The notes under the pieces are model-generated. The model did no database searches, was not told the DNA's origin, and saw nothing but the letters and a program-made list of their open reading frames with translations. Positions 14,106 through 63,712 of a stretch of DNA of 64,000 nt are shown here, one piece after another. Source of the DNA: Escherichia virus TH47; sequence record MT446416.1. The stretch is one strand, 5' to 3'. The position numbers were made by a program, and so were the translations under genes. Numbering within the stretch: position 1 is the stretch's first letter; each line of letters starts with the position of its first letter.

Positions 14106-14650
14106 TAACTGTATCCTTGCATTAAAAGATCATAAACTACATGGACTAAATTTAATTGAATATAAAATTTTAAACCTTTAATTAATGGATTCAAATGCAT
14201 TGTACTGAATAACATTAGATACATCATCTCATGCGGTTTTGTGATTAATGATTTTTGAAATACTTCAGCTTCATCATAAGGGTCTATGAACTGAAATTTG
14301 TCTTCATCATAATTTGTATTGGAATGCTGATATATAAAATAATCATCATTGGTATTGTACCACAAATACCCTTCGAATCCTGTACTAACATCTTTGGTCA
14401 ATGGGGATGCTGATACTGGATTTGAACTGATTAATGCACCTACATCAACAATCCCCGTTGTATCATATTCGATTTCATCATCAATGTCAATATCAATGTA
14501 TTTCCTTGCGATATCTGCGTTTATGGACAAATATAAACTACCACCTGTCCTCTGACTCAGGATTCCATCTATCTGCGATATAGGATGGTTGTTATTGAGG
14601 ATAAGCATTATTGTACTAATCTTGTGTGCTAATAATTCTATCTCATTCAT
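14096..14650 (-). CDS. FamA paralog, function unknown (recent duplicate of 13518-14024)
   Basis: motif AEVFQKSLITKP; shared N- and C-termini with 13518-14024. Confidence 0.6.
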   Translation of the reverse strand: MNEIELLAHKISTIMLILNNNHPISQIDGILSQRTGGSLYLSINADIARKYIDIDIDDEIEYDTTGIVDVGALISSNPVSASPLTKDVSTGFEGYLWYNTNDDYFIYQHSNTNYDEDKFQFIDPYDEAEVFQKSLITKPHEMMYLMLFSTMHLNPLIKGLKFYIQLNLVHVVYDLLMQGYSYEV

Positions 14651-24715: not shown

Positions 24716-24860
24716 TTTGAATCTCCTAACTTTGTGGGCCGTCGCACCATTGCCGCCCTACGAGATACATTATTGCAGTACTGCTATACTTTGTCAATAG
24801 TTTTTTATTAATAGTTTTAGTACTGGCAGTACATCCACCAGCAGATAGTTACTCACCGTT

Positions 24861-24965
24861 ATTAACTATATATTTTAGATACACCTATGCACCCGGTGGG
24901 CTAGTTTTTGTCTATGCGTATATAATAGCAAAGGGACTTACCGGAGTCAATCCCTTTTTTATTCT
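24861..24965. repeat. ~100-nt conserved intergenic element, copy 1 (TATAAT...ATGCACCCGGTGGGCTAG...hairpin+T-run)
   Basis: near-identical copies at 25966-26066, 28698-28800, 32948-33055. Confidence 0.55.
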
Positions 24966-24967
24966 TT

Positions 24968-25225
24968 TTATGAAATATCTTCGATGTAGTCGGCCCATTT
25001 CATTTTTTCAGTACTGTCAATGGCTACCGGATTATTTGGATCAAACCATTCACCATTACCGCAATACATACCCACGGCTACGGTTTTATAGCCATCCTGT
25101 GCCGTATTCCATGACATTGCACGATAGATATGGCCTTTAATTGGTGTTAGTACTGGTAACGTTTTATGGTCTTCTACGTAGGCCATAGCTTGAGGATTTA
25201 CCCGATATTGTGTGAACTGTTCCAT
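24968..25225 (-). CDS. hypothetical protein
   Basis: 85 aa. Confidence 0.5.
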   Translation of the reverse strand: MEQFTQYRVNPQAMAYVEDHKTLPVLTPIKGHIYRAMSWNTAQDGYKTVAVGMYCGNGEWFDPNNPVAIDSTEKMKWADYIEDIS

Positions 25226-25865: not shown

Positions 25866-25928
25866 TCCTGGACTTGAGGGGAAACCATTTCCCCCTCTCG
25901 ATGTAAAACATTATACGCGAATTGCGAT
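25866..25928 (-). promoter_or_regulatory. sigma70-like promoter (TTGCAT-16-TATAAT) followed by palindromic stem-loop GGGGAAAnnnTTTCCCC and RBS
   Basis: -35 at 25922-25927, -10 at 25900-25905, stem-loop ~25868-25885 (minus-strand sense). Confidence 0.55.
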
Positions 25929-26073
25929 AGTATGCAAGTACTTTTTTAAAATAGTTTTCAGTACTGAATACTTATATAATAGATACATTTATGCACCCGG
26001 TGGGTTAGATTGTTTTCATGCATATATAATAGCAAAGGGACTGACCTGAGTCAATCCATTTTTTTAATCTTTT

Positions 26074-26658
26074 TTATCGTGTTATAGTTACGGCTTTTAC
26101 ATCACGCTTTTTATAGTACTGATTCCAGATATTGCGGGTTAAACCGTAATCAAGTACTTTAATCAAGCCGTTACGATCCTGGCCGATATTCTGTTTTCTG
26201 ATATCTCTTATAGTTAGTGTTGATAAGGTATCATCAACGTGTTGTAGTGCATCAGCAAAGCGGTGCTGGCGTTCAATGGTATTACGTTTAATATTGCACT
26301 TTAATTCGTTGCACGCGTTAACGTGCTTTACGCTGCCTTTGCTTGCAGTACTCAAACGATCCATAACAATAAACATATTATCAGGATCGCTTAAATGCAT
26401 ATGCACCTTAGCAAAGTACTGTTTCATTTGAGGGCGGTCATAATCTAAAAAATTCCATACCTTACATTCAGTTTCATTTTGTTCTACACCCGCATCACAA
26501 TTCGCGACCTTGATCACTAACCGATCATTTAAAGCGAATACTATACGGGAAGAACCCGCACCGATGATCTCAAGACCAGCTAACCGACAAGCTGAAAGGA
26601 TCTCTTTGTTGGTTTCCATTTCTGACAGTGTACGGATAAATTTAGTATAATTACGCAT
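26074..26658 (-). CDS. protein-kinase-like protein (Ser/Thr kinase fold)
   Basis: Gly-rich loop IIGAGSSRIV, VIKV lysine, catalytic-loop-like IRDIRKQN, DFG-like LDYG; start MRNYTKF at 26656-26658 after AAGGAG. Confidence 0.5.
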   Translation of the reverse strand: MRNYTKFIRTLSEMETNKEILSACRLAGLEIIGAGSSRIVFALNDRLVIKVANCDAGVEQNETECKVWNFLDYDRPQMKQYFAKVHMHLSDPDNMFIVMDRLSTASKGSVKHVNACNELKCNIKRNTIERQHRFADALQHVDDTLSTLTIRDIRKQNIGQDRNGLIKVLDYGLTRNIWNQYYKKRDVKAVTITR

Positions 26659-28536: not shown

Positions 28537-28620
28537 TTGTCAATCTTTTTATCAGGGGAGTTTTTCGTATGTCTTACTCCTGGACTACTTAACGGGGTTA
28601 CTTGTTTCGTTCCCCCGTCC
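28537..28620. repeat. ~80-nt conserved element (ATCAGGGGAGTTTTTCGTATG...CCCCGTCCTGATG), copy 1 of 2
   Basis: second copy at 38537-38622; internal inverted repeats. Confidence 0.5.
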
Positions 28621-28942
28621 TGATGTAAAACATTATACTTGATTTTAAGTACAATGCAAGTACTTTTTAAAAATAGTTTTCAGTACTAGCCACCAGCAAA
28701 TAATAGATACATTTATGCACCCTGTGGGCTGATTTGTTTCTATGCGTATATAATAGCAAAGGGACTTACCGGAGTCAATCCCTTTTTTAATTATTTTTAA
28801 ACTTGTTTTGGGTTGCGATATGTGATAGCGTTCGGGTACATTTGTTTAATGTTATTCCATGCCTGGTTAACATTATAACCACTTGAGCGAATCAGTTGGT
28901 TACTACCGACACCTTGAAACACTACTTCGAATAAGAATTCTT

Positions 28943-30455: not shown

Positions 30456-30783
30456 TATTTTAACCTCATTATAAAAATACTATATTACTGTAATGCTACA
30501 ATAATACTACTAGTACTAATCTTATTCAAACCACATGATACTACATATCCACCAGCATTACCACGGATAGTAACGCCTTTGTACTGTCTATATAAATTCA
30601 ACTGCGTTTATTGCCTTTGATCAAGAATTGATCAGAATTATACGCCTTATGCTAAATTGATCCAGTACTTTTTGATCATTTATTGATCAATATTATACAG
30701 TTACATTTGTGCACCCTATGGGTTGGTGACGTTCTCGTCTTGATGTAAGTATTATGCCAGTACTGGATGATATTGTCAATAGA

Positions 30784-32365: not shown

Positions 32366-32833
32366 CTATTTCACGTTAATTTCAAAGTACTGCTCTTTGA
32401 TGTTTTCCTGTTGGTAAATCTCGTTTAATGCTTTAAGATCTAACACCTGTTTACCTGCGGCCCGAATATACTTGTTAAGAGTCGCTAACAGCTTCTCAGG
32501 CGTGTTTGTAGTCTTACGTGTTGGGATCTTATCGTGTCCCATAGCGTAGTACTGTTTACGTGGAATAGTACTGATAACGCTGCGGTACGGTTCCATGATC
32601 AGCTTGTCTGTGTATTCGTCGCTATCCCCGAACTTCATACCGTGGATCGCAAAGGTCATCATCATGCGGTCGTTATCGCGGATATTGTGGGGGCAATCGG
32701 CAAGCTCGCGAGTCAGTGACATAGTGATCCCCACGTCGCCACCCAGCGGTAAAGGTCGGGCGATAAAGAAACCGTTAGGGAATACTTTCAGGAAGTTTTC
32801 TTGTACTGCTGCGACGAATTCGATGCTATTCAT
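32366..32833 (-). CDS. hypothetical protein
   Basis: 155 aa; AAGGAAATG context. Confidence 0.55.
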   Translation of the reverse strand: MNSIEFVAAVQENFLKVFPNGFFIARPLPLGGDVGITMSLTRELADCPHNIRDNDRMMMTFAIHGMKFGDSDEYTDKLIMEPYRSVISTIPRKQYYAMGHDKIPTRKTTNTPEKLLATLNKYIRAAGKQVLDLKALNEIYQQENIKEQYFEINVK

Positions 32834-33499
32834 AATTCATTTCCTTAATTAGTGGGGGAAGTTGTTTCCCCTCTCGATGAAAAACATTATACGCCAATTG
32901 AGATAGTTTGCAAGTACTTTTTAAAAATAGTTTTCAGTACTCAATACTTATATAATAGATACACTTATGCACCCGGTGGGCTAGTGAGCTATCTCTCAAT
33001 GAATATATAATAGCAAAATGGCTGACCGAAGTCAACCACTTTTTTCATTTATTTTTTAGCTTTTAGAATCGCCGCCTTTCGCGTCATGCCTTGCTTAATG
33101 TACTCCTTTACTTTCGCTTTACGTGCTTTCGCTTTATTTGCTTTCGTAAATGCCGAACAACTTTTATAGTTTAAACCTGTTGGATTCATTTAAATCACCA
33201 TAAAGAATAGATAGGTTACTAACAACGCCGCGATCAATGCACCGATCACCGCCGAACTGTAATAAGCAAATGATTTCATTTTTTAGCCTGGAAGTAATGT
33301 TTAATTTGTGCGGCGGTCAGTGCACAATTTCGCAGGAAGTTTTCTGTATAACTGCGGCGAGTACTGAAAGAAAATTGACCTTTGCCGTTGCCGATAGTAA
33401 CATCAAACCGAGCGTTGTATTGTTTCATTTTGATTCTCCTTGTATCAGGGAGGAACCATTTCCCCCCCCTCTATGTAAAACATTATACAGTACTGAAAA

Positions 33500-36881: not shown

Positions 36882-37122
36882 TTGATTATCCTTAGTTACC
36901 AGGGGAACCGTTCCCCCTATGTAAAACATTATACGCGTTTAAAAACTATTATCAAGTACTTTAATATAAAAGTATTTGAAAAATAATTGTTGACAACTGC
37001 ATCCAGTACTGGCATAATACCTACATAAAGACAAAACAGTCTCCAACCCACCGGGTGCATAGATCCGTCTATTAAATGATTCAGTACTGCAAAATAAAGG
37101 GGATCAATTGATCCCCTCTGTA

Positions 37123-38475: not shown

Positions 38476-38899
38476 TTTGTAACCCTCATTCAGTAGTTGA
38501 TGTAAGTATTATACGCTTTTAAAAACAATTGTCAAACTATTTTATCAGGGGAGTTTTTCGTATGCCTTACTCCTGGGCTACTCAACGGGGAGTTACTTAT
38601 TTCGTTCCCCGTCCTGATGTAATACATTATACGCCGTTAAACATAGTATGCAAGTACTTTTTAAAATAGTTTTCAGTACTGAATAGTAAAAAGGTATTGA
38701 CAGCACTATCCAGTACTGGCATAATATACCCCATGACAACAGCTAACCCACCGGGTGCACAATTGTAACTGTACTAAACTACTTTTTCTATAGATACACT
38801 CCCGCACCCCGTGGGCCAAATTGTTCGTTTCAATAGATACATTATGCCAGTACTGACAAAATAAGTCAATACTGGCAATTGTAAAGATTTGTAAACTAC

Positions 38900-40624: not shown

Positions 40625-40937
40625 TACTACATAAGCCGGACACAAGGCACTAACCCACAGGGTGCGGAATTACGCCCAAAATTCAAGATATAAAAAAAGG
40701 ATACACTCCCGCACCCTAGCAGGTCAACGCACTTTCTCAGTACTGAAATATAGTACCATAGTACTTGCCAGGATAGCAAGCAAATTAATTAAAACTTTTT
40801 TGCTTCCAGGGTATTGCTTTATTTTTTCAGTACTGTATAATAGTTTCATCAAGTCGAGAAAGACTCAAGCCCACCGGGTGCATAGTTACGCCCAAAATTC
40901 AGTACTGAAAAAATTTTTAAAATATCTGTCCAGGCCG

Positions 40938-50021: not shown

Positions 50022-50050
50022 GCCAGTACTTGATACTGGCTTTTCTTTTT
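50022..50050 (+). terminator. intrinsic terminator (GCCAGTAC-TTGA-TACTGGC + T-run)
   Basis: read directly. Confidence 0.6.
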
Positions 50051-52416: not shown

Positions 52417-52422
52417 AATAAT

Positions 52423-52450
52423 GCCAGTACTCTGTACTGGTATTCTTATT
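52423..52450 (+). terminator. intrinsic terminator hairpin
   Basis: GCCAGTAC-TCT-GTACTGG followed by T-rich tract. Confidence 0.5.
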
Positions 52451-53629: not shown

Positions 53630-53659
53630 GCCAGTACTTGAGTACTGGCTTTTCTTTTA
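53630..53659. terminator. bidirectional hairpin terminator between convergent genes
   Basis: GCCAGTACTTGAGTACTGGC + TTTTCTTTT. Confidence 0.55.
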
Positions 53660-55510: not shown

Positions 55511-55515
55511 AATTA

Positions 55516-55547
55516 ATCCAGTACTATAATAGTACTGGATTTTTTAT
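55516..55547. terminator. bidirectional hairpin terminator
   Basis: ATCCAGTACTATAATAGTACTGGAT + TTTTTT between convergent genes. Confidence 0.6.
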
Positions 55548-58053: not shown

Positions 58054-58824
58054 TTAAATTTTCTCAAGGAACAAGTTTTCGCACTGCTCTTCCCAATCAT
58101 ACGGGTTGTTGTTGTATACTGCTGAAATCAACAGAGGCATACGCAGTGAAGGAGCACGAAGTGCATCTTCATGTTTCAGCATCCAATTCAGGATTGCTTT
58201 GCTACCATTACTATTAACACCTTTAGTTGACAGGATGTTGGTCTTGTTCATTACGTTTTCAATGTGAATCATGATATCGCTTTTAGTCTGGATCTGTAAG
58301 TCAACATACACAGAGCGAGACATAAGAGCAGCATAGTGAGCAGACATTTTGGTTTTAGCTTTAGCATTCAGTGCTAAATCTTTGTTAGTAATGAATACGA
58401 TACGACCGTTAAAATCAAAGCTGTTAGGGATACCGTTGGTAGTTAAGTACTTAGAGCTAGTCATGTAAGACACAGTACGTTTACCGCTGTCCAGTACTGC
58501 TTTGAGCAGGTTCATACCGTCTTCTGAATCAAAGATGCTGTCCATATCATCCAGTACTAATACGTTAGTGCTGTGACGATTCTTGTACAGAACTTCATAC
58601 AGAGCAAGAGTAGTCATCTTACCACTGATAGTAACTACGTTCCATTCTGCTGCGTCATGAGCTTTCTGGAGGCGTTGTGACAGGGTGTAAGTCTTACCAA
58701 CACCAGGTGCACCGCTGACAACCATACTTTTTACAGTACTGCTATCATCGAGCAAACACTCAAGAGCAACCATCATGGAGTTGAAGTTTTTCTGGATTTG
58801 AATGCTACGTGCTTCTCTGGTCAT
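58054..58824 (-). CDS. P-loop NTPase (AAA-type ATPase-like)
   Basis: Walker A VVSGAPGVGKTYT, Walker B-like VLVLDDMD. Confidence 0.65.
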   Translation of the reverse strand: MTREARSIQIQKNFNSMMVALECLLDDSSTVKSMVVSGAPGVGKTYTLSQRLQKAHDAAEWNVVTISGKMTTLALYEVLYKNRHSTNVLVLDDMDSIFDSEDGMNLLKAVLDSGKRTVSYMTSSKYLTTNGIPNSFDFNGRIVFITNKDLALNAKAKTKMSAHYAALMSRSVYVDLQIQTKSDIMIHIENVMNKTNILSTKGVNSNGSKAILNWMLKHEDALRAPSLRMPLLISAVYNNNPYDWEEQCENLFLEKI

Positions 58825-58865
58825 TTCGTTATCCTCATCAGTTGATGAAATAATTATAGCAAAAA

Positions 58866-58885
58866 GGGCTGACCGAAGTCAACCC
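58866..58885 (-). terminator. terminator-promoter cassette: UUCG-tetraloop hairpin + T-run with -35 (TTGAC) inside the stem and TGcTATAAT -10
   Basis: minus strand reads GGGTTGACTTCGGTCAGCCCTTTTTGCTATAAT; repeated at 60313-60331, 61118-61137, 61701-61719, 63286-63305, 33019-33040. Confidence 0.6.
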
Positions 58886-58895
58886 TTTTGTATTG

Positions 58896-60044
58896 TTATT
58901 TCTTGTCTAAGATTTGTACTTCACCATAAATCTGTACGATTTGCTTTTCTGGATTACCTTCGATAAGTTTTAGAAAAGATTTCAGTACTGCAACGTGGTC
59001 TTCATAGTATGCAATCCTAATGAAGTTGTAACCGTTGTTGATGGCGTACTCAGTTTTTATTGCGTCTTTTATCTTTCTTTGTTCAAAAGCACTTTTGCCG
59101 CCCCATAATTTGATTGATTGAAAATGTTGTACTCCATCATATTCCAGAAGGATTCGTTTACTTTCAATAAATCGATCAAAAGGTAATGGCTTTTTGAACT
59201 TACAATCAATGAAGCGTTTCTCTTTTATGGTATCATCTTCTAACATACCATCAATATCAACTAAATTCTTACTCTCACCTGATGAACAGGTAGGACATGA
59301 AGACTCAGATGATATATAGTTATGATATGATGGATAAAATGGGTTATTACAATCATTACACTGTAAATGTAATTTTGTTTTTGATGTTTCATAAACACCT
59401 CCCACAAATCCAATAAAGGTATTATTACAAACTGCGTTTCTTTTATCTATTTCATATTTGACTACTAGAATATTCAAACGAATCTTTTTTGCCGAGCTGT
59501 AATCACGACATTCAACACAATTATGACCATTAAGAAAATCATAAATGTTCTCACATAAACGAGTATGGTTGTTTTTACATTTGTACCAAAATTTAGATTT
59601 GAATTTTGTAGTAAATTCACCTTCAAATTTGATAAATGTAATAGATTCACGTTTACACTCTTTTTGTATTTCTTTTAATGCATCAGATTCAGATATTTTG
59701 ATAGTGTTTTGGTACTCTTTTCTTTTCTTCTTACCACATATCTGACATCCACCAGAGATAAGATAACTTTTCAGTGAACTTGTACATAAAGTGCTGCATG
59801 TTCCACATCTAAACAGAACTTTATTCTTTTCTAGTCCAAAAAATTGATTACTGTTTGATATCTGTAAGCCAAAAATAGTATCTTCTTTTTCAATGGCTTT
59901 TAGTTTAATTTCATCAATTCTAACGATAGTTTTTTTATTTTTTACAGGAACATTTTCTATTTTCATGTACTCAAATTTAGTACATAATTCTTCAATAATA
60001 TAAACTTTCTCACCATCTTCATTTAAATAGTACTTTTCAAACAT
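58896..60044 (-). CDS. zinc-ribbon repeat protein with C-terminal endonuclease-like domain (homing-endonuclease-like)
   Basis: three Cx2C...Cx2C repeats; C-terminal EYDGVQHF...IRIAY resembles PD-(D/E)xK / Vsr-like endonuclease. Confidence 0.5.
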   Translation of the reverse strand: MFEKYYLNEDGEKVYIIEELCTKFEYMKIENVPVKNKKTIVRIDEIKLKAIEKEDTIFGLQISNSNQFFGLEKNKVLFRCGTCSTLCTSSLKSYLISGGCQICGKKKRKEYQNTIKISESDALKEIQKECKRESITFIKFEGEFTTKFKSKFWYKCKNNHTRLCENIYDFLNGHNCVECRDYSSAKKIRLNILVVKYEIDKRNAVCNNTFIGFVGGVYETSKTKLHLQCNDCNNPFYPSYHNYISSESSCPTCSSGESKNLVDIDGMLEDDTIKEKRFIDCKFKKPLPFDRFIESKRILLEYDGVQHFQSIKLWGGKSAFEQRKIKDAIKTEYAINNGYNFIRIAYYEDHVAVLKSFLKLIEGNPEKQIVQIYGEVQILDKK

Positions 60045-60060
60045 TACTCAATACTCCTTT

Positions 60061-60273
60061 TCAGTACTGAACCCGTCCAGCACCATTAATCTTAGCCTGA
60101 ATCTTATCTTTTTCGACAAGACCTTCTTTGTAATCGATGGACGTATTATCGCACTGAATTACATCTAAGTCAAGTACTTCTTGTGTACTTAATGAAGTAT
60201 TGTCTGCAATTTGTTGTAAAGTAATGATATCAGTACCGAAGAATTCTGCTAAACGTATAAAAGATAATTTCAT
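60061..60273 (-). CDS. hypothetical small protein
   Basis: 70 aa; AAGAGG RBS. Confidence 0.45.
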   Translation of the reverse strand: MKLSFIRLAEFFGTDIITLQQIADNTSLSTQEVLDLDVIQCDNTSIDYKEGLVEKDKIQAKINGAGRVQY

Positions 60274-60325
60274 GTGTTACCTCTTAAGTTGATGAAATAA
60301 TTATAGCAAAAAGGGCCGACCGAAG

Positions 60326-60595
60326 TCAACCATGTTTGAAAGGATTTTTTAATGGTTTTAGTACTGTATGTATTCTGCTGTGTAGTTCTTCTTCCCACAA
60401 AACATTTACATTATAAACTAAATCATTGTAATCACTGTACTCAAATATAAAATCATACTTTTCATCAAAAGTATGAGAAATCAATTTCATTTTCATCAGT
60501 ACAATAGAACTTTTAAATTTATATGTTTCTTTTTCTTCTCCGGTTTTTGAGATTGGTATATTTTTTACAAATTCTTTGAATTCATCATCAGTCAT
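60326..60595 (-). CDS. hypothetical protein
   Basis: 89 aa. Confidence 0.4.
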   Translation of the reverse strand: MTDDEFKEFVKNIPISKTGEEKETYKFKSSIVLMKMKLISHTFDEKYDFIFEYSDYNDLVYNVNVLWEEELHSRIHTVLKPLKNPFKHG

Positions 60596-60613
60596 AGTTT
60601 AACCATATATTAT

Positions 60614-60835
60614 TTAACCAGTATTAGTCCCAATATAGTCACTCCATAAATTATATATATTGTTTTCAACACAATCATCATCGCTTAATTCTATCATTGA
60701 TGATATAAGTACTGATACGGTTTGTGTGTTCAAATCGGTATCGCGATGTTTCAACCACCATTTCAGGGTGAGGGTGAGTGTTCGTGCTGTGTTTGGATTA
60801 TTTGTAAATTTATATCTGGTGGTATCGAGAATCAT
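60614..60835 (-). CDS. hypothetical small protein
   Basis: 73 aa. Confidence 0.4.
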   Translation of the reverse strand: MILDTTRYKFTNNPNTARTLTLTLKWWLKHRDTDLNTQTVSVLISSMIELSDDDCVENNIYNLWSDYIGTNTG

Positions 60836-60883
60836 TTTAAATCTTCTTTCATTTAATTATATAAACAAAGTACTCATGTAATT

Positions 60884-61081
60884 TTAATTACTTTTGTATA
60901 TTGAATCACATTGTCTACTCAATAGTTTATAGTATGCTTTACCACGAGGAAATAGTTTACGTGTATGTTCTCCTTTTCCCCACGGTCCTAAATATGTTTT
61001 ACGCGTGTCATGATTATTAAAGTTCTTTGATACAGTTGATTTTGTACCAATAGGATCTTTCTTACTAAAATAGATAGACAT
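60884..61081 (-). CDS. hypothetical small protein
   Basis: 65 aa. Confidence 0.4.
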   Translation of the reverse strand: MSIYFSKKDPIGTKSTVSKNFNNHDTRKTYLGPWGKGEHTRKLFPRGKAYYKLLSRQCDSIYKSN

Positions 61082-61143
61082 TATAAAGTTTTCTCTTTAC
61101 TAAGTTTATGTATTAACGGACTGACCGAAGTCAACCCTTTCCT

Positions 61144-61659
61144 TTAATAATTATTCATTTCATCTTTGATTTGTTCTTCAATTTCGTCGAACATATCAGT
61201 ACTAGATTCTATATTACTACTTACGTCCTGCATATCTTTAACGTACTGTGGGCGTTCAACGTCAGTAAATTTATACCACTTAGGCTTCATCTGGAGCTTC
61301 TCAATCAAACGCTCACGAGACATTTTAATCTCTGACTCCGATGGTACGTAGTCATTACAAAACTCAGCAGGGAAGCCGCTAATGTCGTTTACTTCAGTGT
61401 TTTGAATCTTCATACCACGACGCAAACATTCATTAACAATATCAATATGACGCTTCTGTAAGTACAATAACTTGTTGTAGAAGAATGTTACATGACCTGA
61501 ACCTAACAGGTAAGTACTGTTAATTTTGAAATCACGGACTCGCTTACGTGCTTGAACATGTTTTTGTACAGCACCAAACACACGTGGGAGTTCACGATAT
61601 TCAGCCATCAGATGTTGGTCAGCAAGTTCTTTAACGTGTACTAAGTTAATGCGTGTCAT
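61144..61659 (-). CDS. denV: pyrimidine-dimer DNA glycosylase / endonuclease V
   Basis: [30 protein letters not shown]...KRVRDFKI...GHVTFFY closely matches phage T4 endonuclease V as recalled; longer C-terminal acidic tail. Confidence 0.85.
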
Positions 61660-61728
61660 GTATTCATCCTCTCGTTTCGATGAAATGATTATAGCAAAAA
61701 GGGCTGACCGAAGTCAACCTTTTTCTTA

Positions 61729-63243
61729 TTATTGTTTTACCCCGCCCCACTTTTCATAGATTGCAATAATCTTATACAAGTTTGTGATGTTAGTTGTTTC
61801 CGTGTAACCATCTTTCATTTCATTTTTGGTAAGTACACCTTTACCAAAAATCCTCTTACACTCCTGTTCTGCTGACCTACAACTTTTGGGAGTGCTGAAA
61901 TGATAATACAACATTGAAGAAACTTTATATATACATTTATTGTCTTGGTGCTTCTGGCGGCGACCATGAACCTTTTCAATTCCATATTTCAATGCAATAG
62001 GTAACTCACCATCATAGATCACATGAATGTATGCAAATTGTTGATTATGATTAGAACATTCGGGGCAACCGGAACCACCAAGGTGAGCATTTGGAGTTAT
62101 TTTGAACTCACCATGTTCGCTACATTCAACCTTAACTAATTTATGTGCATTCACATAATTCGTTTTAGGATATGTGTACTTCCCATTATGTACTTTAGAT
62201 GCCTTTTCAATAAATTCAGGTGTACTAGAACGTTCACATCCTGAACATTTAGAACAACCATTTTTTTCATGTAGATGGTGTGTTGGTTGCTGCGTGAACA
62301 CACCATGTTCTTTACAAACAATCGATACTTTAGTTTTTAAGTTTTTATATTTAACTAAAGAATAATCATATTTGTCTCCATGTATTTCATGTGCTTTTTT
62401 GATGAACGTTTCGGTAGTTAACGCCATCTTTCCACTACACTCTAAACAACCATTGCCAGCCACATGTTTACTGGCAAGTTGCTCAAAATCACCATGTTCT
62501 GGACATGTAATTATAACTTTTCCACGTCCATTTATATAGATAGTTTTATCATATGAATATTTGTCACCGTGAACTTCTTTACATTTTTTGATGAAATCCG
62601 GGGTGTCTTTATATCTATACGTACCACTACATTTAGCACATTTAAAACCACTTAGGTGGTTTGCTGGGGTTTGTTCAAAATCACCATGTTCTTTGCATGT
62701 TATTGTAACTTTGGTTTTTGAGTTGATGTACACAACTTTATCGTATGTGTACTCAAAATTATGTTTAACATTTGCCTTCATGATAAAGTGCTCATTCGTA
62801 GAAACTCTTCCCAAGTGTACAATTGAACCGTCTTTATTCATCTTAGTGCATAAATTACATCCACGTTTTTTTCTTAAATGATCACTAACTCTTTTCTCAA
62901 AATCACCATGTTCTGGACATGTTATAATTACTCTAGAAGAATTAGAAACATCATCTTGTACCTTATCATAAAGGTACACATCACCAAAAATAGCACGAGA
63001 CTGTTCGATGAATTTAGCTTTACCCTTTCGAAAGTGTAGTCCATTTTTTGTATATCTACATTTTTTGCAGCCAGATGACCGTAAATGAGTTCCAGCAATT
63101 TGTTCGAACTCACCATGTTCTGGACATGTAATAATCACTGAGGTTCTTGAATTAACATAAACCACTTTAGTATAATCGTACTTAAAATTATGCAATTTAT
63201 TCGCTTGTTTTACAAACTCTTCTTTATTCATTGCGACTGGCAT
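61729..63243 (-). CDS. multi-zinc-ribbon protein (6-7 tandem CxEHGxF...HL...GCxxC repeats), possible nuclease
   Basis: repeats ITCPEHGEFEQ...; C-terminal VIY-N9-YGI...RR loosely GIY-YIG-like (weak); start MPVAMNKEE with same upstream context as denV. Confidence 0.5.
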   Translation of the reverse strand: MPVAMNKEEFVKQANKLHNFKYDYTKVVYVNSRTSVIITCPEHGEFEQIAGTHLRSSGCKKCRYTKNGLHFRKGKAKFIEQSRAIFGDVYLYDKVQDDVSNSSRVIITCPEHGDFEKRVSDHLRKKRGCNLCTKMNKDGSIVHLGRVSTNEHFIMKANVKHNFEYTYDKVVYINSKTKVTITCKEHGDFEQTPANHLSGFKCAKCSGTYRYKDTPDFIKKCKEVHGDKYSYDKTIYINGRGKVIITCPEHGDFEQLASKHVAGNGCLECSGKMALTTETFIKKAHEIHGDKYDYSLVKYKNLKTKVSIVCKEHGVFTQQPTHHLHEKNGCSKCSGCERSSTPEFIEKASKVHNGKYTYPKTNYVNAHKLVKVECSEHGEFKITPNAHLGGSGCPECSNHNQQFAYIHVIYDGELPIALKYGIEKVHGRRQKHQDNKCIYKVSSMLYYHFSTPKSCRSAEQECKRIFGKGVLTKNEMKDGYTETTNITNLYKIIAIYEKWGGVKQ

Positions 63244-63298
63244 TGTATTCATCCTCTCGTCTTGATGAAATAATTATAGCAAAAAGGGCTGACCGAAG

Positions 63299-63712
63299 TC
63301 AACCCTTTTTTCTTTCAATCAAACATAGTCTACCAGAATGTACCATGCGATGGTGATTAGAACAAAGAATCATACACTTTCGAATTTCATCTTTGATAGA
63401 TTCTCGACTTTTACTGAACATAGAACTTGGTGTATGTTCTTTGGTATTAGGATCAAGATGGTGAAAGTCTAAACATTCTGGATACTTCATCATACAAATA
63501 CTACAACCATAAAATGATTTAACTCTGGTCATGAAATCTTTATTTTTTCTTTTGATTTCTTCAAGTTTTTTGACCTCAGTTTTTTTATTTCTGGTTTTCT
63601 TACTGGTAATATTTCTACAATCGTTGCATGTATTTCTATGTTTCCCAGTATCACTTCTTATACCAAATTCACTAATGTTTTTTTCAATATTACATGTAAT
63701 ACACTTCTTCAT
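63299..63712 (-). CDS. HNH endonuclease
   Basis: Cys pairs plus DFHHLDPNTKEH...CSNHHRMVH HNH motif. Confidence 0.65.
   Translation of the reverse strand: MKKCITCNIEKNISEFGIRSDTGKHRNTCNDCRNITSKKTRNKKTEVKKLEEIKRKNKDFMTRVKSFYGCSICMMKYPECLDFHHLDPNTKEHTPSSMFSKSRESIKDEIRKCMILCSNHHRMVHSGRLCLIERKKG

Follow-up and report, generated by a model that had tools for sequence, protein, structure and literature searches.

Repeated hairpin cassettes around denV of an Asteriusvirus-like jumbo coliphage: candidate promoter-coupled terminators at the junctions of gene modules

Introduction

The intercistronic regions of phage T4 reportedly contain hairpins with a cUUCGg loop, as Tuerk and colleagues are said to have described in 1988. 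T4-like phages also carry promoter-early stem-loops (PeSLs), which are known from RB49/phi1, PST/T4 and nt-1/KVP40 (Arbiol et al., 2010, PMC2839356; Comeau et al., 2014, PMC4122927). PeSLs were reported from experiments to act as promoters and as terminators and to form mini-circles (PMC2839356; PMC4122927). In bacteria, promoter-coupled terminators were described in a preprint (Fletcher et al., 2026, bioRxiv 10.64898/2026.08.19.745784). There, the -35 element is contained in the DNA of the terminator stem-loop, the T-tract precedes the -10 element, and transcription restarts within 35 bp downstream of the termination site with a mode of about 10 bp. Here we examine a repeated hairpin cassette around denV, the gene for the pyrimidine-dimer glycosylase endonuclease V, in Escherichia virus TH47 (MT446416.1). 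The stretch of 64,000 nucleotides which was analysed as a whole is called the window. A first-pass annotation had proposed that the hairpins with a UUCG loop and a U-run terminate the upstream gene, that TTGAC in the stem together with TGnTATAAT forms a promoter for the next gene, and that the element is a portable regulatory cassette. We conclude, with a probability of roughly three in four, that in its complete form the cassette is a PeSL-type intrinsic terminator coupled to a promoter and that it also acts as a recombination module.

By its sequence matches the window belongs to an Asteriusvirus-like (121Q/PBECO4, Rak2-like) jumbo coliphage and not to a T4-like phage (Straboviridae). The best matches of positions 58700-63500 are Asteriusvirus-type jumbo coliphages of 350-385 kb (121Q, PBECO4, BF17, fEgEco12, JP4, G17). 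Local identity is 90-98%, and the maximal coverage of these positions by any one relative is 33%. The surrounding 24 kb are likewise mosaic with respect to the relatives. Most likely the cassettes are located in an early, hyperplastic region of such a phage.

Results

The 20-mer GGGTTGACTTCGGTCAGCCC occurs six times in the window with at most two mismatches, always on the minus strand (33019-33038, 58866-58885, 60313-60332, 61118-61137, 61701-61720 and 63286-63305). Dinucleotide shuffles gave an expectation of 0.01, which rules out pure chance or low complexity as the source of the repeat. The hairpins at 63286, 61701, 60313 and 58866 are part of a complete cassette; these four copies align across about 70 nt and are nearly identical to one another. 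The repeated unit of about 70-75 nt reaches from an A-tract to a start codon and is longer than the string from hairpin to -10 which had been noticed initially. It comprises, in this order, the A-tract (A4-6), an 8-bp hairpin with a cUUCGg loop, T5, TGC-TATAAT, the leader TATTTCATCrA, a Shine-Dalgarno sequence (GAGGA or GAGGT) and ATG, with leader, Shine-Dalgarno sequence and ATG placed 47-52 nt past the hairpin. The first-pass annotation had listed five copies of hairpin-TTTTT-GC-TATAAT around denV and a sixth one at 33019. Four of the five were confirmed; the copy at 61118 has neither a T-run nor a -10 element. At 33019 the hairpin indeed matches GGGTTGACTTCGGTCAGCCC with two mismatches, yet it is a member of a different composite repeat of about 190 nt. 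The five copies around denV lie within 4.5 kb and adjoin four ORFans and three endonuclease genes. All genes of this region are on the minus strand, and those which flank the cassettes are co-directional and tightly packed, without further hairpins between them. The cassette hairpins are positioned 0-12 nt past the stop codons of co-directional genes.

In RNA the hairpin has a C(UUCG)G loop on a stem of 8 bp, one of which is a U.G pair. The sense hairpin core has a folding energy of -12.7 kcal/mol, and -17 to -20 kcal/mol are reached once the A-tract pairs with the U-run. For three copies shuffled sequences never folded as well (z-scores of -4 to -5). On the antisense strand the hairpin contains a C.A mismatch and a CGAA loop and folds with -7.5 kcal/mol; therefore the element is strand-specific. 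A terminator scan detected two of the four complete copies (61701 and 60313); the other two share the anatomy and fold more stably. At the cassette hairpin of relatives, ARNOLD terminators are annotated in G17 and in the supplement for phage CBB (Torf515/518/520). An Rfam scan of the whole window at gathering thresholds gave no match. The stable sense fold, the location behind stop codons and a covariation of the outer stem pairs, computational tests throughout, are as expected of the terminator initially proposed.

The same holds for the promoter. In all four complete copies TTGACT, i.e. stem positions 4-8 plus the first base of the loop, is followed after a spacer of 18 nt by TGC-TATAAT as an extended -10 element, with 11 of 12 consensus positions matched. 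These cassettes are the top four sigma70-like sites between 50 and 64 kb. IMG/VR was searched with the exact core plus TTTT, a pattern which ends before the -10 element, and 37 instances in 25 stretches were retrieved. At a spacing of 17-18, TAnnnT was present after 35 of the 37 exact cores (TATAAT, TATTAT, TATACT, TATGAT and others); the leaders beyond the -10 were unrelated among these matches. Bacterial and archaeal genomes (596 Gb) contained seven exact core matches, most of them without a -10. In the record of the Yersinia phage fHe-Yen9-03, -35 and -10 signals are annotated on the cassette hairpin. We found no source which assigns both roles, terminator and promoter, to the element; a literature search for the cassette sequence itself yielded no relevant paper, and the papers on RaK2 and fEgEco12 do not discuss promoters or terminators.

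Elsewhere the hairpin is found without a -10 element or is followed by TATAAATA, a T4-type late-promoter motif (BF17 14316-14335 and 12735; Vibrio phage D482 4008; fEgEco12 11885). Because of these other contents of the -10 site, the terminator half appears to be reused with other promoter types or alone.

Next, we consider the constraints on the hairpin. Every 20-mer with up to five mismatches to the core was collected, both in the window and in about 70 loci which had been fetched. This yielded 60 distinct sense variants, in which pairing was kept in 92% of the cells. The three outer stem pairs covaried, with 19 double-sided changes compared to 3.9 in shuffles. In the five inner pairs, which have TTGAC as their 5' side, changes were restricted to the 3' side via U-A/U.G or G-C/G.U, and the TTGAC arm was almost invariant. 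This is the pattern expected of a sequence which is needed both as an RNA stem and as a -35 element. Further, the loops vary between copies in Rak2-like genomes and are of the UNCG type (UUCG, UACG, UCCG) or of the GNRA type (GAAA, GAGA, GUAA, GCAA); as many loci were fetched with a TTCG-containing pattern, loop frequencies are biased and solely variants which were found incidentally are used here. The variety of tetraloops points to selection on RNA stability.

To examine portability, the window was compared with ten relatives over the interval bounded by the homologues of 121Q genes 216 and 223. In the window the interval has 4962 bp and five cassettes; in the relatives it extends from 1125 bp (fEgEco12, two cassettes) to 5082 bp (Turkey3, four cassettes), i.e. 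the range across genomes is two to five cassettes. At the site of the 61118 copy the left flank, which includes the denV stop (TATTAAAGGAAAGGGTTGAC), is fused to different right halves in different phages. The right half is decayed in the window and truncated just past the loop in 121Q, G17, JP4 and Ecwhy_1. Complete chimeras exist in fEgEco12, with a right half of the 58866 type, and in BF17, with a right half of the 60313 type. As the denV-stop flank of fEgEco12 is joined to the 58866-type half, this phage lacks 2.2 kb. Eight of the 22 distinct breakpoints of homology are inside cassettes, which constitute 7.7% of the interval (binomial p = 1.5e-4). The chimeric cassettes at module junctions among the ten relatives support the portability which the first-pass annotation had suggested.

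The individual cassettes, numbered C1 to C5 in the direction of transcription, alternate with the genes as follows (all on the minus strand). The HNH endonuclease gene (137 amino acids (aa), 63299..63712) is located upstream of C1 and is not itself preceded by a cassette. JP4, fEgEco12 and WPEC3 have this gene; it is absent or replaced in 121Q, G17, BF17, Ecwhy_1, CMSTMSU, WPEC5 and Turkey3. The complete cassette C1 (63253..63311) starts with its A-tract at 63311-63306, followed by the hairpin (63305-63286, loop TTCG) which contains the -35 TTGACT (63302-63297), by T5 (63285-63281), and by TGC and the -10 TATAAT (63278-63273). The predicted start site is A 63266; the Shine-Dalgarno sequence GAGGA precedes the ATG (63252) of a 507-aa open reading frame (ORF).

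This endonuclease-like ORF (61729..63252) lies between C1 and C2. It carries six tandem zinc-ribbon units (C-x-EHG-x-F...C-x2-C; Pfam DUF723, DUF4379, Zn_ribbon_HMPTM) and a C-terminal domain common to phage endonucleases (phrog_681). It is bounded by direct repeats of about 75 nt, namely the cassettes C1 and C2, with homology from the A-tract through the base preceding the ATG. At the corresponding site it is absent in all ten relatives compared. Among 50,697 phage records there was no homologue with more than 60% identity (best match 47%, Xanthomonas jumbo phage XaC1); hence no donor of the module was found.

The complete cassette C2 (61660..61726) has its hairpin at 61720-61701, with A as first stem base, the -35 at 61717-61712, the -10 at 61693-61688 and a predicted start site at A 61681. 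Downstream are the leader and the Shine-Dalgarno sequence of denV with its ATG at 61659. denV itself (61144..61659) is a conserved module and is predicted to be driven by C2. C3 (61118..61143), with the denV stop as left flank, is a decayed half. Its hairpin (61137-61118, 3' arm GTCAGTCC) has an extra G.U pair and -7.1 kcal/mol, and a T-run and a -10 at the correct spacing are lacking. By its anatomy, C3 is a non-functional remnant.

Three small ORFans of 65, 73 and 89 aa are located between C3 and C4 (60326..61081), each of which is at a different place in relatives. In BF17, Ecwhy_1 and CMSTMSU the 89-aa ORF is translocated: along with its left cassette flank it is upstream of denV. The next complete cassette, C4 (60274..60338), has a hairpin at 60332-60313 (TGG..., 3' arm GTCGGCCC, -9.4 kcal/mol), the -35 at 60329-60324, the -10 at 60305-60300 and a predicted start site at A 60293, followed by the Shine-Dalgarno sequence and the ATG (60273) of a 70-aa ORF (phrog_34150). 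This ORF and a homing-endonuclease-like ORF of 382 aa occupy 58896..60273 between C4 and C5. The 70-aa ORF is kept as module head in seven relatives, and different endonuclease genes take the place of the 382-aa ORF in relatives. Lastly, the complete cassette C5 (58825..58891; hairpin 58885-58866, -35 58882-58877, -10 58858-58853, predicted start site A 58846) leads with its Shine-Dalgarno sequence to the ATG (58824) of an AAA-ATPase-like gene of 256 aa, a homologue of 121Q gp223. Transcription thus proceeds from the HNH gene via the 507-aa ORF, denV, the three ORFans and the 70-aa and 382-aa ORFs to the AAA-ATPase-like gene.

The TGA within the -35 TTGAC is the real stop codon of the HNH ORF (63299-63301) and of the 89-aa ORF (60326-60328). 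Moreover, in every complete cassette stops are present in all three frames ahead of the next ATG: TGA in TTGAC, TAA in TATAAT, and TGA or TAA by the Shine-Dalgarno sequence. Therefore, any ORF recombined upstream would be closed.

The variant copy C6 (32865..33050, minus strand) has its hairpin at 33038-33019, the -35 at 33035-33030 and TGC-TATTAT at 33012-33007. It differs from GGGTTGACTTCGGTCAGCCC by two mismatches and has a T4 run, a 17-nt spacer and TATTAT as -10. A box CCCACCGGGTGC (32980-32969), an AGTACT inverted repeat, a second promoter (TTGCAA-N17-TATAAT) and an ORF at 32833 follow downstream. A tRNA scan found none; hence this copy does not drive a tRNA. C6 groups with three more diverged copies at 24934, 26038 and 28762 in the composite repeat, and not with the class of the denV region. 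The composite intergenic repeats of about 190 nt extend over 24780-24975, 25884-26079, 28608-28803 and 32865-33060 on the minus strand. They contain a diverged hairpin-embedded promoter, GGGATTGAC-TCCG-GTAAGTCCC-TTTGC-TATTAT, and the box CCCAnnGGGTGC, as well as an inverted repeat AGTACT...AGTACT, TTGCA-N-GTATAAT as second promoter and a leader which includes GAGAGGGG.

Two further motif systems were observed in the window. A 12-nt box, CCCA-NN-GGGTGC, occurs ten times compared to 0.77 expected, at 24889-24900, 25993-26004, 28717-28728, 30711-30722, 32969-32980 and 38804-38815 on the minus strand and at 37047-37058, 38747-38758, 40654-40665 and 40870-40881 on the plus strand. The nine boxes whose surroundings were analysed, i.e. 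all but that at 40870, are about 25-35 nt past a sigma70-like -10, close to where the transcript is predicted to begin, and are followed by a conserved ATAnnTGTAtCT. Those at 38747 and 38804 face each other from convergent promoters. Variants of the box are present in metagenomic Rak2-like contigs (L032, L037, L048), and Rfam had no match for it. Candidate functions are those of a nut/put-like RNA box near promoters, of a processing site and of an operator. The other system is based on the palindrome AGTACT. It comprises GCCAGTACT...AGTACTGGC hairpins, some with plus-strand T-runs (50022-50040, 52420-52444, 53630-53649, 55515-55541), and, between 27745 and 41605 on the minus strand, many TTGACA-N17-TATAAT promoters with a spacer ending in AGTACTG or CCAGTACTGGCATAAT. 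Probably, this is the 'first class' of cassette which the first-pass annotation implied by speaking of a second one.

Discussion

Anatomy, conservation pattern, covariation and junction structure are directly established; from these we infer termination, initiation and the mechanism of recombination. RNA polymerase arriving from the upstream gene would transcribe GGGUUGAC-UUCG-GUCAGCCC-UUUUU, and the cUUCGg hairpin plus U-run would free the transcript, with the upstream A-tract possibly extending the terminator stem. The same DNA may constitute a sigma70 promoter: the A-tract would act as an UP-like element, the -35 would be provided by TTGACT within the 5' arm, the 18-bp spacer by the 3' arm together with the T-tract, and the extended -10 by TGC-TATAAT. 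The host sigma70 polymerase would restart about 12 nt past the termination point, at a conserved A seven nt beyond the -10. As the restart is downstream of the hairpin, the new transcript would be devoid of it and would not be terminated by it; it would carry the conserved leader and the Shine-Dalgarno sequence for the next gene. Because the copies of about 70 nt are nearly identical, they may further serve as a homology patch. Recombination from copy to copy would insert, delete or move modules, each of which would retain a terminator, a promoter and a ribosome-binding site. Every computational test agrees with, and thus supports, this dual role and the portability of the cassette.

Several points weigh against it. 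The U-run is only five residues long, the 18-bp spacer is one above the optimum, the C4 hairpin is weak (-9.4 kcal/mol) and the C3 site was able to decay without obvious harm. The covariation set was assembled from sequences similar to the core, part of which share a common ancestry. Finally, 14 of the 22 breakpoints are outside cassettes, several of these at the edges of homing-endonuclease genes. Therefore, recombination at cassettes is not the sole source of the mosaic; judged from the junctions it is a major one.

The breakpoints at endonuclease gene edges lend themselves to another explanation, i.e. that the repeats arise from or assist the mobility of homing endonucleases, as duplicated targets or homology arms, and are not selected regulatory elements. 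It would fit that three endonuclease-like genes are present within 4.5 kb and that the 507-aa endonuclease ORF, unique to this phage, is situated between direct repeats of about 75 nt. However, cassettes also precede denV, the ATPase-like gene and the small ORFans, whereas the HNH gene has none in front. Elsewhere the core is located after rIIB, DNA ligase and DNA polymerase genes, with no endonuclease annotated in the 400-4000 nt flanks examined. As covariation at the RNA level and the tetraloop pattern are left unexplained, we consider this explanation improbable.

Quite improbable is also that the element is an intrinsic terminator only, in which case TTGAC and TATAAT would be incidental in AT-rich DNA and the downstream genes would be expressed by read-through or from other promoters. 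The hairpins without a sigma70 -10 at fEgEco12 11885, at BF17 12735 and in most of the seven bacterial-genome matches, as well as the published annotations of G17 and CBB, which give a terminator alone, would agree with this. Yet TTGAC is almost invariant whereas the outer stem covaries, and a -10 was present at a spacing of 17-18 after 35 of the 37 viral exact cores although it was outside the search pattern. In addition, TGC is ahead of the -10 in all window copies, and the other predicted same-strand promoters of the window share both the TTGAC(A)-N17-TATAAT form and the orientation.

Alternatively, the promoter may be real and true termination minor, the hairpin being mainly a post-transcriptional 3' stability element or an RNase processing site in a polycistronic mRNA. 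cUUCGg hairpins are highly stable and would be a barrier to 3' exonucleases, and the U-run is short (five) and followed by GC. The GC-rich base of the hairpin with an immediate T-run, the positive terminator scan and the terminator calls by ARNOLD, in three independent annotations, argue for termination instead, and at overlapping promoters the promoter itself was experimentally found to enhance termination (bioRxiv 10.64898/2026.08.19.745784). We rate this possibility as very improbable. Hardly credible is that the palindrome is a DNA operator at which a phage regulator shuts off early promoters and that the hairpin potential is a side effect of the dyad: the dyad does overlap the -35, a typical repressor position, and terminator palindromes were reported to double as transcription-factor sites (bioRxiv 10.64898/2026.08.19.745784), but the conserved T.G wobble and the wobble-only changes of the inner pairs suit RNA and break DNA dyad symmetry, loops swap freely among stable RNA tetraloops, and the outer stem covaries without conservation of sequence.

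An identical core of 24-35 nt, AAAGGGTTGACTTCGGTCAGCCCTTTT (plus -10), exists in several distinct phage groups, among them several genera of Rak2-like jumbo phages, and is almost absent from bacterial genomes. It was found in Eneladusvirus phages of Yersinia, Serratia and Erwinia, which have about 24% intergenomic similarity with Asteriusvirus, in CBB, GAP32 and RaK2-like Klebsiella phages, in Vequintavirinae (CR9, CB7), in Straboviridae of Aeromonas and Vibrio and in Brochothrix phage A9, a member of the Herelleviridae with a Gram-positive host. A host origin of the core was rejected, as none of 5,426 complete E. coli genomes contained it. It is conceivable, if rather unlikely, that the core is not a lineage-specific repeat but a regulatory cassette which circulates horizontally among unrelated virulent phages as a common homology patch for gene exchange. 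If true, unrelated lytic phages would have in it a shared currency with which to exchange genes. It is plausible that the phages converged on an optimal solution of the kind "-35 plus cUUCGg". With TTGAC and a cUUCGg loop given, TTGACTTCGGTCA is forced, and G3/C3 clamps are typical of terminators. The same TTGAC-TTCG-GTCA centre is present with other stem extensions in unrelated viral contigs, usually followed by a -10; the existence of such alternative extensions favours convergence, although GGG...GCCC dominates.

Some occurrences are next to genes for the repair of ultraviolet (UV) damage. In Pectobacterium phage CBB the core (at 559) is directly upstream of denV (MTRINLV...), with a diverged leader, and in the T4-like Aeromonas phages 65.2 and AS-zj the gene which follows it encodes another UV-damage endonuclease. 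This association with UV repair may be due to chance.

The cassette would be a compact natural example of a single DNA sequence which functions as terminator, promoter and recombination module. For annotation it would delimit transcription units among mostly unnamed ORFs and explain the mosaicism of the locus between near-identical genomes. Its core of about 45 nt is a candidate for a minimal insulating part in synthetic operons.

How does the cassette compare with known systems? Like PeSLs it is a short composite repeat which unites a sigma70-like early promoter and a stable stem-loop with AT-rich DNA upstream and with the Shine-Dalgarno sequence and start codon of the next gene. It is likewise clustered in a hyperplastic region beside ORFans and mobile or variable genes, is located where close relatives are joined differently by insertion, deletion or replacement and has degraded 'half' copies. 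The differences are as follows. The window cassette is from a Rak2-like jumbo phage (Asteriusvirus), whereas published PeSLs are described only in T4-like phages. Copies are few here, four to five, with five to nine BLAST places per relative. The -35 is inside the 5' arm of the stem; according to a figure legend the PST stem-loop is just upstream of the promoter, and for nt-1 the same position is an inference from the published consensus. In RB49/phi1 the stem-loop is between -35 and -10 or over the -10, again unlike the window cassette. An equation with the nt-1/KVP40 consensus (A3-4 G3-loop-C3 T3-4; -35 TTGYVH) was rejected: the clamp is similar, but TTGACT does not fit TTGYVH and the stem-loop appears to be placed differently. 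Activity and mini-circles were demonstrated for PeSLs; the window cassette is a candidate by its sequence.

As in bacterial promoter-coupled terminators, an intrinsic terminator is located between tandem genes, the stem-loop DNA provides the -35 and the T-tract is directly upstream of the -10. The predicted distance from termination to start, about 12 nt, is close to the reported peak of about 10 bp. The bacterial examples, in which coupling was mapped, are single unrelated chromosomal loci; in the window coupling is predicted, and the element is a near-identical repeat and a candidate phage recombination module. Lambdoid morons are similar as self-contained transcription units inserted between phage genes. 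They have a separate promoter and terminator, no shared repeat and a GC content unlike that of the host phage, whereas here one fused element is common to neighbouring units. The T4 hairpins reportedly share the extra-stable C(UUCG)G structure between phage genes, but are not known to include a -35 element or to form repeated cassettes. In papers and records on Rak2-like phages these hairpins have so far been labelled solely as terminators or solely as -35/-10 signals. The kind of cassette is already known from PeSLs and promoter-coupled terminators; the phage group is new for it, and the PeSL idea is extended from T4-like to Rak2-like jumbo phages.

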